The notes under the pieces: generated by a model
The model's input: only the letters and a program-made list of their open reading frames with translations
What the model was told of the DNA's origin: nothing
Database searches by the model: none
Shown: piece after piece, positions 955-15,691 of the stretch
Layout: each line of letters starts with the position of its first letter
Numbering within the stretch: position 1 is the stretch's first letter
Origin: Promethearchaeota archaeon
Lineage (GTDB): Archaea > Asgardarchaeota > Lokiarchaeia > Sigyniarchaeales > SOKP01
Assembly: GCA_008080735.1 (NCBI GenBank)
Contig: SHMW01000005.1
Coordinates: 1 to 64,000, forward strand
DNA length: 64,000 bases
Direction: 5' to 3'
Program-made: the position numbers and the translations under genes

Positions 955-1078
955 ATCCTCGTGGTGTAATAGGTGTTGATACCAGAACAGTTTCGGGTAA
1001 TGCCGCATGTTTCTGCGATTGAAACTTAGCACATTCGTTACAAAACGAAAGATTTAGGTTCGAATCCTAACGAGGATA
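955..1078 (+). ncRNA. tRNA-like RNA 1 with ~52-nt structured D-loop insertion and 6-nt anticodon loop
   Basis: Acceptor ATCCTCG/CGAGGAT; D-stem GTGT/GCAC; anticodon stem TTCGT/ACGAA with loop TACAAA; T-arm TTAGG-TTCGAAT-CCTAA; insertion ~975-1026. Confidence 0.8.
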
Positions 1079-1086
1079 TTCTCTAC

Positions 1087-1232
1087 GTCGCTATAGTTTA
1101 ATAGGATAAAATGAAGCAGTATAGACTTGGTAGTTCAAATATTAGAAACGGGCTATCTCTCTGTACACATTGGTTTTATTTTAAAACATCACAACAATTG
1201 TGAAGATATAGGTTCGAATCCTATTAGCGACA
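1087..1232 (+). ncRNA. tRNA-like RNA 2 with ~76-nt hairpin D-loop insertion and 5-nt anticodon loop
   Basis: Acceptor GTCGCTA/TAGCGAC; D-stem GTTT/AAAC; anticodon stem TCACA/TGTGA with loop ACAAT; T-arm ATAGG-TTCGAAT-CCTAT; insertion ~1106-1181. Confidence 0.8.
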
Positions 1233-2860: not shown

Positions 2861-3189
2861 GACATCTTTCATTTTCTGATAACTGTTGTACAGTTGGATG
2901 GACATCAATTCACGCTTCAATGTCGTATGAAGATATGAAAGATTTGCTATCCAAATGTCCAAAAGGAAGATTTTCCAATACCTTTTTTTGTCGCACTTCC
3001 ATCTATACTATTGAACAATATGCTGAATATTTAAATGAACGTTGTTGCCACGGAACACACAACGATGTGCCAGAGCTTCCTTTTTATTTTACCTTCCCTT
3101 TGGACGATGACGGAATACGCTTACTACGCAACTTTGGCTATACGCCAGAACGCAGTAGATATTGGCATGAAAGGATTTGTATCAAATGA
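2857..3189 (+). CDS. hypothetical protein
   Basis: ORF with ATGA overlap. Confidence 0.55.
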   Translation: MRHLSFSDNCCTVGWTSIHASMSYEDMKDLLSKCPKGRFSNTFFCRTSIYTIEQYAEYLNERCCHGTHNDVPELPFYFTFPLDDDGIRLLRNFGYTPERSRYWHERICIK

Positions 3190-3506
3190 TTGTACAGGTA
3201 TTTCCAGGTATAAATTGTTGGTTGTCTAGACTTAGGATGCCAGAAGATCGTAATCGTAATTGGTATTTTGCGTTATTTCATGATAGTAAAAGATCATTCT
3301 ACTATGGCCCATTGCAAGCTGTGGGTACAACGAAGCCACTATTTAAATGTAAATCTTATAGAGAGATGATGTCCATATTGAAGACAGATATGAATATGGA
3401 TTTGATTAAATTATATAATGATAATAAAATAGAAAATGTTGAGAACCGTTACACCGAAGGTTCTGTGTTTTTTAAAGCAAGAGGATATGTCCCTGTAGTT
3501 CAATAG
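3186..3506 (+). CDS. hypothetical protein, paralog of 3571..3882
   Basis: Shared SYRE...LK..M...LIK motif; stop codon lies inside tRNA-Arg. Confidence 0.55.
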   Translation: MIVQVFPGINCWLSRLRMPEDRNRNWYFALFHDSKRSFYYGPLQAVGTTKPLFKCKSYREMMSILKTDMNMDLIKLYNDNKIENVENRYTEGSVFFKARGYVPVVQ

Positions 3507-3570: not shown

Positions 3571-3882
3571 ATGAAAATAACAAAATTGGCGATTTGTGAA
3601 CGAAGTGGTCCAACAAAAAGCTATAAAGTTTTTATATATAATAATGCAAGATTTTTTTATTTATGTTCCAATCTTCGTTTTTATTGCGACAATTTTTTAG
3701 CTCTAAATACTGATCGTACTCATCAGCAGTTAAATTTTAACTCTTATAGAGAAGCAATTGGTGTTTTAAAATCTGTTATGGGATTAAAGTTAATAAAGAT
3801 ACTAGATGGTGATTTTTATAAACGATTCTTAATTAAGAACGAAAATGTGTTAGAACGATATGTATCTACAAAGGTATACTAG
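3571..3882 (+). CDS. hypothetical protein, paralog of 3186..3506
   Basis: SYREAIGVLKSVMGLKLIK motif. Confidence 0.55.
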   Translation: MKITKLAICERSGPTKSYKVFIYNNARFFYLCSNLRFYCDNFLALNTDRTHQQLNFNSYREAIGVLKSVMGLKLIKILDGDFYKRFLIKNENVLERYVSTKVY

Positions 3883-3884
3883 TA

Positions 3885-4577
3885 ATGATATGGTTTACAT
3901 CAGACACACATTTTGGTCATAAAAATACTATAAAATTCTGTCGATCACGAAATTGTTTTATGACTAGCGAAGAAACAGAATTATGGAATCAATCGGGGAA
4001 AGATATTTCCACTCCGATATCATCTCAATCAATCCATAACATGAACAAAACTATTATAGATAACATAAATAATTGTGTTAAATATGATGATATTTTATTT
4101 ATATTGGGTGATTTTTGTTTTCCTTCATCAAAATGTAAAATATATACAAATCAAATAAATTGTAAAGACATAAGATTGGTTCTTGGAAACCATGACAACC
4201 TTTCGCAAATTAAACCACTATTCGATCTTCATCCCGCGTTTACCATAGTGTACAATCCAATACAGATATTTATTCATAAGTATGAAGAAAATATGGTACT
4301 GGATATCTATAACATTAGTTATAATAATAAAATAAAATCAAGGTTCTATAAGAATATTAAGAACTGGCAAGGATTTTATTTAAGTCATTATCCACACATT
4401 TCTTGGCCTAGAAGTGACCGTGGTAATATCCATCTTCACGGCCACTCCCACGGAAATCTGGAAGAATGGAAAAAAGAACACATGCCTGATAACCATCGCA
4501 ATATTATTGATGTAGGTGTTGATGTGCAAAATCTCAAGCCTATAAGTTACAACGAGATTAAGGATAGACAACAATGA
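3885..4577 (+). CDS. calcineurin-like metallophosphoesterase
   Basis: SDTHFGH, LGDF, GNHD, HGHSH, DVGVD motifs. Confidence 0.9.
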   Translation: MIWFTSDTHFGHKNTIKFCRSRNCFMTSEETELWNQSGKDISTPISSQSIHNMNKTIIDNINNCVKYDDILFILGDFCFPSSKCKIYTNQINCKDIRLVLGNHDNLSQIKPLFDLHPAFTIVYNPIQIFIHKYEENMVLDIYNISYNNKIKSRFYKNIKNWQGFYLSHYPHISWPRSDRGNIHLHGHSHGNLEEWKKEHMPDNHRNIIDVGVDVQNLKPISYNEIKDRQQ

Positions 4578-14425: not shown

Positions 14426-15691
14426 ATGAACGTTGTCACAAGATTTGCACCAAGTCCAACTGGAAAAGGTTTGCATATAGGTGGTTTAAGAACCGCGTTA
14501 TATAATTACTTATGGGCTATGAAAAACAAAGGACAATTTTTAATAAGGGTGGATGATACAGACGAAAAACGATCTAATGAAGAATCTTTGGCCGATATTA
14601 TTGATTCATTGTCTTGGTGTGGCATTAAACCTAGTAAGAAAATCAATTACTTTCAGTCTAAGAAAAAGGAAAGCTATCGTTTTTACGCCAATGCACTTGT
14701 GAATATGAACAAAGCTTATGTAGAAAATGGCTGTGTTAAGCTATCGGTCAAAAAACTTATTGAAAACGAGATTTACGATTCGTGTTTTGATATCATAGAT
14801 GGGGTACTTGGCCCTGTTAGGTTTAATAAAAACCAAATAGAAGACTTTGTTATATTAAAACAAGATGGAAATGCCACTTATAATTTTGCTACGGTATTAG
14901 ATGATAAATTTATGAATGTTAATTATGTTATGCGTGGTCAAGAACACTTGATAAATACTGTAAAACAAAAAATACTACATGTATGTTTGAAGATGGAGCC
15001 GCCAAACTACATACACATGCCTGTAATACTTAATCAAGATGGTTCAAAAATGAGCAAACGTCAAGAGTCAGACATGATTAATGTATCTGACTTTAGAAAA
15101 GCTGGTTATTTACCAGAAGCTATTGTGCATTTTGTTTCTTTGTTGGGGTGGACTCCAAAGAATAACAAGCCATTGTTAAAGCTAAGCGATATGGTTGAAC
15201 AATTTGATTTTAGAAAAATTCGAAAGACCAATCCAAGATTTGACATTAAACAATTAGGTAAAATAAACAAAAGATGGATGTCTAACGAGACTGTGATTAG
15301 TATTAAATATAAAATTAAAAAAACACTTGGTGAAATAAATCATGATAAGATTGATATTATTTATCCACATGTTATAAACAAATGCAAAACCATTAATGAT
15401 TTTATAGAAAATTATAAATCTGTTAATATAAATCAAAAGCCCGTTATCAAAGACGAAAGTTCAAGAAAAGAGCTTTCTAACTTAGGACAGTTATTAGCGA
15501 CAATAGATATGTGGGATCGTGAAAATATTATAGAAGTCATTAAGTCGTATAGTGAATTATCTAATAGGAGTATGTTCGATATTGCAAACAATATTCGTAA
15601 AAATTTAACACATACTAAATATATACCTCCTATTGATGTTTTTCTTTGTGCTTTAGGTCGTCAACAGTCTTTAAATCTATTAAAGGTATAA
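14426..15691 (+). CDS. gltX: glutamyl-tRNA synthetase
   Basis: RFAPSPTG, HIGG, RVDDTD, TYNFA, RGQEH, KMSKR, LLGW and a C-terminal helical domain. Confidence 0.9.
   Translation: MNVVTRFAPSPTGKGLHIGGLRTALYNYLWAMKNKGQFLIRVDDTDEKRSNEESLADIIDSLSWCGIKPSKKINYFQSKKKESYRFYANALVNMNKAYVENGCVKLSVKKLIENEIYDSCFDIIDGVLGPVRFNKNQIEDFVILKQDGNATYNFATVLDDKFMNVNYVMRGQEHLINTVKQKILHVCLKMEPPNYIHMPVILNQDGSKMSKRQESDMINVSDFRKAGYLPEAIVHFVSLLGWTPKNNKPLLKLSDMVEQFDFRKIRKTNPRFDIKQLGKINKRWMSNETVISIKYKIKKTLGEINHDKIDIIYPHVINKCKTINDFIENYKSVNINQKPVIKDESSRKELSNLGQLLATIDMWDRENIIEVIKSYSELSNRSMFDIANNIRKNLTHTKYIPPIDVFLCALGRQQSLNLLKV

Follow-up and report, generated by a model that had tools for sequence, protein, structure and literature searches.

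Near the start of the window (the whole analysed stretch of DNA, 64,000 nucleotides) two RNAs are encoded in tandem that have the body of a tRNA, a long insertion in the D loop and an anticodon loop of fewer than seven nucleotides. This raises the question of which function such RNAs could have in the genome that encodes them, and from which tRNA they might descend.

Structure and integrity of the two RNAs

The two RNAs and their parts are the following.

955-1078, plus strand: RNA1, tRNA-shaped RNA of 124 nt with a 6-nt anticodon loop
955-961/1071-1077: acceptor stem of RNA1, followed by A73 at 1078
964-967/1029-1032: D stem of RNA1
974-1027, plus strand: D-loop arm of RNA1, 54 nt, a single long interrupted hairpin after G19
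1034-1038/1045-1049: anticodon stem of RNA1, enclosing the anticodon loop at 1039-1044
1054-1070: T arm of RNA1, preceded by a variable loop of 4 nt
1079-1086, plus strand: spacer of 8 nt between RNA1 and RNA2
1087-1232, plus strand: RNA2, tRNA-shaped RNA of 146 nt with a 5-nt anticodon loop at 1194-1198 and A73 at 1232
1106-1182, plus strand: D-loop arm of RNA2, 77 nt, a long hairpin after G19 (z -3.7)

Both RNAs form complete cloverleaves with 21/21 stem pairs each (7+4+5+5) and keep U8, A14, A15-U48, G18, G19, A21, a canonical T loop and the 4-nt variable loop. The coordinates, the 8-nt spacing, the stems, U8, the variable loop, the T arm and the anticodon loops of 6 and 5 nt that had been given in a preliminary description of the locus were all confirmed, and its placement of the inserts directly after the GG of the D loop was correct, with the insert sizes of about 52 and 76 nt corrected to 54 and 77 nt. 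The complete D loops measure 61 nt (RNA1) and 84 nt (RNA2), compared to about 7-11 nt in canonical elongator tRNAs. Folding, which had been proposed as a check, returned a cloverleaf with an extended D arm as the minimum-energy structure of both RNAs (z -3.2 for RNA1 and -5.5 for RNA2; 0/200 shuffles as stable). The anticodon loops can be closed further to 4 and 3 nt, and neither RNA offers a 7-nt loop with U33. CCA is not encoded in either gene. Stem positions at which both partners differ between RNA1 and RNA2 with pairing intact number 11.

RNA2 was recognized by Rfam as a tRNA (46.2 bits) with a 78-nt D-loop insertion, and ARAGORN detected neither RNA at its default settings; default tRNA finders miss such genes. 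Misassembly had been named as a possible source of this architecture. It was ruled out because Logan contigs from two public runs, which belong to a single study and may derive from the source samples, span 930-1314 and 917-1321 and are identical to the window across both RNAs with zero differences. The searches for a promoter or a terminator yielded none above chance. A listed ORF at 1127-1678 with a TTG start overlaps RNA2; its likelier start lies at about 1253, behind a Shine-Dalgarno-like site, and its product has no family match.

Genomic context

The window opens a contig of 104 kb that belongs to an archaeal assembly of 4.1 Mb with two tRNA endonuclease genes and 7% contamination. The contig consists of dense, co-oriented ORFs, among them genes for a bacterial-type DnaE, RuvB, a RecA-like protein, ThyA, a class II reductase, TilS and a glutamyl-tRNA synthetase (GluRS). 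We read it as a bacterial-type jumbo phage that was binned into the archaeal metagenome-assembled genome (MAG) by composition, the GC contents being similar. The closest named cellular sequences to the phage GluRS are from Planctomycetota, a weak hint at the phage host. The contig begins inside a DUF4116 repeat gene (6-734), which leaves the RNA region without its upstream part. Its TilS gene (2228-2860) is short and encodes 210 amino acids, the catalytic domain only. In related phages a tRNA-Ile(CAT) gene adjoins tilS, and none was found on this contig; following TilS homologs as a route to relatives yielded phages that are unrelated and whose tRNA-Ile(CAT) is ordinary. The archaeal tRNAs of the MAG itself include several with D-arm inserts of about 30 nt (C2:49175-49276, C6:47858-47959, C98:12008-12109 and C77:3995-4097), which are most likely ordinary non-canonical introns.

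A family of similar RNAs in related phages

Same-build RNAs whose anticodon loop contains UCUC were identified 26 times in three related phages (G001 with 15, L170 with nine and L165/L171 with two). G001, an IMG/VR phage of 172.5 kb (CheckV 100%), was found by pattern scan, and further relatives were reached via a syntenic marker protein. The G001 DnaB is 52% identical to that of the window phage, and in all three phages the RNA region is syntenic with the window. All 15 RNAs of G001 have the loop CUCUCAG, G1.U72 and A73, and they are dispersed among small ORFs. The nine RNAs of L170 lie within the 10 kb that were read, and their UCUC is set in loops of 7, 8 or 9 nt. The L165/L171 phage carries the two arm-bearing RNAs plus one insert-less copy.

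Insert-less tRNA-Glu(CUC)-like genes with the CUCUCAG loop were located at L168:9899-9972, just upstream of the syntenic marker, and at L171:11064-11137 (= L165:1216-1289), and they suggest that this is the ancestral state. The L171 copy is without G18-G19 and has an altered T loop.

The 26 aligned RNAs covary strongly. In 28 of the 29 pairs both sides have changed, with a score of 0.775 against 0.13-0.18 in slid controls, and 88.5% of the cells are paired compared to 39-49% in the same controls. The set consists of paralogs, which are not independent of each other; nevertheless the stems turn over almost fully with pairing kept. The window RNAs were compared to this family with a body profile that was trained only on the members from other phages and left out insert and loop. 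RNA1 scored 14.3 bits and RNA2 9.7 bits, the best of 201 ordinary tRNAs reaching 9.1 bits, so that the margin for RNA2 is narrow. Scores of the window RNAs under our models R1 and R2 are circular and were excluded. Against their nearest relatives RNA1 and RNA2 show 7-9 double changes each with 21/21 pairs kept, and they are most likely members of this family that lost UCUC. The motif ACAA is present in both short loops (1039-1044 and 1193-1198), as if replacing the UCUC of the family in concert; by a rough estimate the chance of such a coincidence is a few percent, and no further member with ACAA was found.

The preliminary description had proposed a non-decoding class of tRNA mimics under selection, and it had asked for homologs; the 26 covarying RNAs of like build in three phages are such homologs and support the proposal. 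The collapsed anticodon loop that it stressed does not hold for the family at large, most members having loops of 7-9 nt with a fixed UCUC. The likeness to tRNA-Glu, the amplification to up to 15 copies and the GluRS in the same phages had not been recognized.

Other searches were less productive. BLAST with the RNA pair against 50,697 phage records gave T-arm fragments only, a tight pattern with the ACAA loop had no match in IMG/VR, and queries with the marker ORF and GluRS for related loci retrieved G001 alone. Looser patterns, applied to IMG/VR, JGI metagenomes and GTDB genomes, matched mostly by chance or on tandem tRNAs, the true D-loop-arm matches being in G001 and L082. An additional RNA of G001 and the RNA of L082 (G001:C1:117340-117448 and L082:4517-4657, minus strand) combine a D-loop arm with an anticodon loop of 5 or 6 nt, score -4.4 and -5.5 with the body profile and may represent independent, convergent origins. 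A further match from a scan with the apex motif described below (L173) was due to chance, and the tRNAs there are ordinary. Odd tRNA-like RNAs of another kind, in which the D arm is normal and the anticodon region is enlarged or branched, were observed at L165:2579-2718, L171 near 4010-4100, L166:6837-6936, L086:3551-3676, L094:5077-5189 and L122:4169-4289.

In the related phages the RNA copies are interleaved with a family of small ORFs, an association only, which is also represented in the window.

3571-3882, plus strand: member of the small-ORF family; others at 3186-3506 and, weakly, at 709-948

The encoded proteins, found also in the loci L158, L165, L166, L170, L171 and L172, are basic, have 70-105 amino acids and the motif FNSxRxAI, and number 59 members in these few loci, with 156 matches among cluster representatives. 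The structural model is a confident beta-beta-beta-alpha arrangement; neither Pfam nor PHROG gave a match, and no fold match exceeded Z 4.1.

A long D-loop arm was not described in any paper that our literature search, mostly outside subscription papers, retrieved. The RNA family is real, selected and apparently undescribed.

The D-loop arm

The arm varies between 17 and 134 nt across the family, and wherever its internal motif is recognizable this motif begins 17-20 nt after G19. In RNA1 the motif forms the apex of the arm.

994-1006, plus strand: apex motif of the RNA1 arm, 13 nt, a CGG/CCG stem with a 6-nt loop, common to arms of the L170 phage

The 13-nt apex occurs in four L170 arms when one loop substitution is allowed, and as a wobble variant in a fifth, at the same distance from G19. 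Only 2/2000 shuffles reach 13 nt and 0/1000 reach the HMM score. Because the relatives' arms have this apex in common, the insert of RNA1 was inherited. The preliminary description had called the inserts unrelated, which applies to RNA1 versus RNA2, but the RNA1 insert is related to inserts of homologs in another phage. The fold that had been suggested for it, a basal stem plus two hairpins, was not supported; the cgca/ugcg hairpin has a pair probability of <=0.03 and the single long hairpin with the CGG/CCG apex one of 0.91-0.93, and a single long hairpin is also the fold of the homologs' arms. Taken alone, the RNA1 arm has no stability beyond that of its shuffles (z -0.16). The RNA2 arm has no primary-sequence match to the relatives' arms and resembles them in a similar 3x2 pyrimidine internal loop, which lies about 20 nt from G19 and thus at the same distance, and in nothing else.

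Neither a cleavage signal conserved across the family nor a bulge-helix-bulge in a common register was found in the arms; many members have no bulge-helix-bulge, and those that occur are relaxed half motifs. The earlier suggestion that the insert is excised as cargo is disfavoured by this lack of a cleavage signal and by the fixed distance between the arm motif and the tRNA core.

Likeness to tRNA-Glu and calculated EF-Tu binding

The identity set of tRNA-Glu includes U11-A24, U13.G22:A46 and the absence of position 47 (PMC9976931). This body set is complete in RNA1 (U11-A24, U13.G22, A46, position 47 absent), which also has U8, A51-U63 and A73, and RNA2 (G1-C72, U2-A71, U11-A24, A46, position 47 absent) has U13-A22 instead of U13.G22. 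Across the family U11-A24 is found in 29/30 and A46 in 28/30 RNAs; the 4-nt variable loop is found in all members but was a selection criterion. These Glu-like features of the body are not specific, being shared by many phage tRNAs other than tRNA-Glu. The anticodon-loop determinants U/C34, U35, C36 and A37 are absent from both window RNAs, and CUC is present in the 26 relatives. The Glu assignment of the window RNAs accordingly rests on kinship, the strong determinants U35, C36 and A37 being missing. In the UCUC-type relatives the loop length is 7-9 nt, UCUC (with the Glu anticodon CUC) is fixed and positions 32 and 38 are always able to pair; the free loop length argues against decoding. GAG makes up 14-24% of the Glu codons in these phages.

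Pair 51-63 of the T stem tunes the binding of EF-Tu (PMC3239215). G-C or C-G is present at this position in 10/10 ordinary tRNA-Glu from the fetched loci and in 0/30 family RNAs; A-U also occupies it in 39% of the ordinary tRNAs for other amino acids, among them the Arg and Gln tRNAs of the window itself. In RNA2 the three pairs A49-U65, U50-A64 and A51-U63 follow one another, and C52-G62 is present in 8/30 family RNAs. The calculated EF-Tu affinity is -9.2 kcal/mol for RNA1 and -9.5 kcal/mol for RNA2, compared to -10.3 to -10.4 kcal/mol (sd 0.5) for bacterial tRNA-Glu. The per-phage means are -8.9 to -9.4 kcal/mol versus -10.5.

The phage glutamyl-tRNA synthetase

A candidate partner enzyme of the RNAs is encoded downstream in the window.

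14426-15691, plus strand: phage GluRS, 421 amino acids, HIGG and KMSKR intact

GluRS is present in the window, in G001 and in the L166/L170 phage, and also on contigs that may correspond to the L165 and L168 records. These phages are kin, and the co-occurrence is not an independent test. The window GluRS has an intact frame and intact catalytic motifs and sits on the longest branch (2.63); its mean identity by domain is 44/36/21% versus about 55/50/32% for the relatives, so that it has diverged in all domains. It has Lys at the position of Arg358 and Ile at that of Thr444 (T. thermophilus numbering), the latter being a position that we take to be an anticodon contact. Nearly all relatives keep Arg at the first and all keep Ser/Thr at the second. 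In T. thermophilus GluRS Arg358 binds base 36 (PMC12088422). The changes at the anticodon contacts would match the loss of UCUC in the window RNAs, in a single case that relaxed selection explains equally. The window enzyme could instead serve the phage tRNA-Gln(UUG).

Like its phage relatives the window GluRS has no acceptor-binding insertion, and the GluRS of G001 and several other phages carries Phe in place of the glutamate-binding Tyr of most GluRS. A glutamyl-transferase was not recognized among the few neighbours scanned.

Putative function

On the comparative sequence evidence we tentatively favour a reading in which the RNAs descend from tRNA-Glu, do not decode and keep their arm for the docking of a protein, the phage GluRS being the enzyme that probably acts on them away from the ribosome. 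With tRNA-Glu(CUC) as its origin, the phage family would have gained a fifth helical arm in the D loop after G18-G19. Host tRNA-processing enzymes would cut the RNAs from a polycistronic transcript and add CCA. Conservation of U8-A14, A15-U48 and G18/G19 with the T loop points to a retained L-shaped core, and the motif at a fixed distance suggests that maturation leaves the arm in place for a protein to dock on. Decoding would be precluded by an anticodon loop that is closed or mis-sized and by a T stem with weak EF-Tu pairs. As ligands of the phage GluRS the RNAs might carry glutamate to a non-ribosomal acceptor, as the staphylococcal tRNA-Gly NP1-3 carry glycine. With UCUC lost and the GluRS anticodon contacts changed, the pair in the window phage would have shifted to anticodon-independent recognition or would be drifting. 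A bolder form, to which we give little credence as a whole, is that enzyme and RNAs form an orthogonal pair in which the phage GluRS charges the five-armed RNAs, the arm directs the glutamate to a specific protein and anticodon recognition was dropped jointly in this phage.

Instead of being charged, the RNAs could be decoys or inhibitors that soak up a host protein recognizing tRNA-Glu (an anticodon nuclease, a tRNA-sensing defence protein or the host GluRS), an alternative that we consider unlikely although several observations agree with it. Copy number would be the dose, a closed loop would resist cutting and the arm would be a second binding site. Up to 15 copies per genome, stems that are free with a fixed loop sequence, a loop length that is free at 7-9 nt and a location in the variable small-ORF region would all suit a decoy, and the two window RNAs, whose loops contain ACAA instead of UCUC, could have switched targets. 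However, the intact GluRS of the phages and the uniformly EF-Tu-weak T stem would be left unexplained, neither a host nor a defence system has been linked to these phages, and the literature search found no such phage decoy.

A role in cis is, in our judgement, improbable. The tRNA body would mark the sites where RNase P and 3'-end processing cut an early, long transcript into near-leaderless small-ORF mRNAs, or it would hide their starts, comparable to the mitochondrial t-elements. This agrees with the scatter of the copies between small ORFs, where they are unclustered, and with an ATG within <=10 nt of the RNA 3' end in 14/15 G001 and 5/9 L170 copies; ordinary tRNAs of these phages, however, are equally near to the next ATG (8 and 7 nt). 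In addition, the window RNAs are in tandem, the ORF about 20 nt from RNA2 possesses a Shine-Dalgarno-like site of its own, and neither a fixed UCUC nor a motif-bearing arm would be needed for punctuation.

The family may also be functional and the two window copies decaying relics, left after this lineage lost its Glu system. UCUC is gone from both, they are the only two copies on the 104-kb contig, the GluRS has the longest branch (2.63) and replacements of Arg358 and Thr444, and the RNA1 arm alone is no more stable than shuffles (z -0.16). Decay is nevertheless quite improbable given RNAs in which 21/21 pairs persist through 7-9 double changes against the nearest relatives and 11 between RNA1 and RNA2, every base of the tertiary core is kept, and the frame and catalytic motifs of the GluRS are intact. 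The contig starts inside a gene, and upstream copies may be missing from the count.

It is very improbable that the inserts represent D-loop introns or cargo RNAs that a splicing endonuclease of archaeal type, or some other nuclease, cuts out. The archaeal MAG has two tRNA endonuclease genes and its own tRNAs bear D-loop introns of about 30 nt, and a relaxed half bulge-helix-bulge can form in RNA2. But DnaE, RuvB, the RecA-like protein, TilS and GluRS on the contig are of bacterial type and the relatives are free phage contigs; the family has no common bulge-helix-bulge register, many members having none; the arm varies between 17 and 134 nt yet keeps an internal motif; and excision would still leave anticodon loops of 5 and 6 nt.

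Tethers similar to Y RNAs, in which the arm would bind Ro60 and the tRNA body an effector, are just as hard to reconcile with the data. The arm is a bulged, pyrimidine-rich helix, and in one relative (JGI 3300071358) Ro60 and an RNA ligase are encoded about 9 and about 5 kb upstream of the syntenic marker. The gene gaps nearby could hold RNAs. No TROVE/vWA_Ro60 gene was found in the near-complete G001 record with its 15 copies or in the assembly of the window, where the contig is incomplete upstream, and both window RNAs are without the YrlA motif GNCGAA, the permuted topology and any Rfam Y RNA match.

Unusual decoding tRNAs, such as frameshift or GAG readers, are hardly credible, since the U33, CUC and mostly A37 of the 7-nt members stand against window loops of 5 and 6 nt without a U-turn frame, weak EF-Tu pairs with C52-G62 in 8/30, arms of 50-130 nt at the elbow and a GAG share of merely 14-24% of Glu codons.

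Comparison with known systems

Archaeal tRNAs with non-canonical D-loop introns, which are present in contigs of the MAG, also have an insert within the D loop. They differ in that the inserts described here are longer, have no shared bulge-helix-bulge, occur in a bacterial-type phage context and leave no functional anticodon after removal. The YrlA Y RNAs (PMC4201824) are likewise tRNA mimics joined to a protein-binding helix and are found in phages, but they have a permuted T-AS-D order, the GNCGAA motif and Ro60 within about 4 kb, whereas the window RNAs have the normal tRNA order.

With bacterial tRNA-Glu (RF00005) the RNAs have in common U11-A24, A46 and the absence of position 47, in addition to U13.G22 in RNA1, G1-C72 and U2-A71 in RNA2 and CUC-A37 in most relatives. 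The D-loop arm and the weak 51-63 pair set them apart, as does the lack of an anticodon triplet in a 7-nt loop in the window RNAs. The tRNA-Gly NP1-3 of S. aureus act as amino-acid donors off the ribosome and have a weak T stem of A49-U65, U50-A64 and A51-U63 (PMC7826273), the same three pairs as in RNA2; their calculated EF-Tu affinity is -9.6 kcal/mol, compared to -9.2 for RNA1 and -9.5 for RNA2. Unlike the window RNAs they are of normal size, have a 7-nt anticodon loop, are charged by the host GlyRS and have known acceptor enzymes (Fem). If the phage RNAs were charged, they would constitute a phage-made aminoacyl-donor system outside translation.

T4 RNA C (rnaC, species 1 RNA, NC_000866 70908-71046) is the closest in outline, with about 140 nt, a canonical T arm, a long hairpin at the place of the D arm, a 6-nt loop in the anticodon position and a location in a phage tRNA cluster; it is expressed, its function being unknown (PMC9697503). 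In contrast to the window RNAs it has no recognizable 4-bp D stem with A14-A15 and G18-G19, its anticodon-position stem has 10 bp, its acceptor stem is mismatched and it occurs as a single copy. Apart from T-arm fragments, sequence similarity to the window RNAs was found neither in the T4 RNA nor in the T5 RNAs, and models R1 and R2 matched neither the T4 RNA nor the T5 RNAs at full length. T5 RNA1 and RNA2 (NC_005859) have 144 and 125 nt, are tRNA-shaped, non-decoding and located among phage tRNA genes, where they are annotated as 'tRNA-like stable RNA with unknown functions'. T5 RNA1 differs by a normal D arm with extra sequence in the anticodon region and T5 RNA2 by the lack of a standard D loop, and neither carries an arm after G19.

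To our knowledge these stable tRNA-like RNAs of T4 and T5 have had no known function for decades. The family described here offers handles that they lack, namely many paralogs that separate fixed from free positions and an enzyme of the same genomes as candidate partner; the window phage is a natural variant in which loop and enzyme have both changed. The family members also indicate that natural tRNA bodies can accommodate arms of 17-134 nt at D-loop position 20, a property of use for tRNA scaffolds. Judged from the sequences compared, the broad kind is old, with T4 RNA C and T5 RNA1/RNA2 as its examples, and in all of these an arm after G19 on an intact D stem, a Glu signature and multiple copies are missing.
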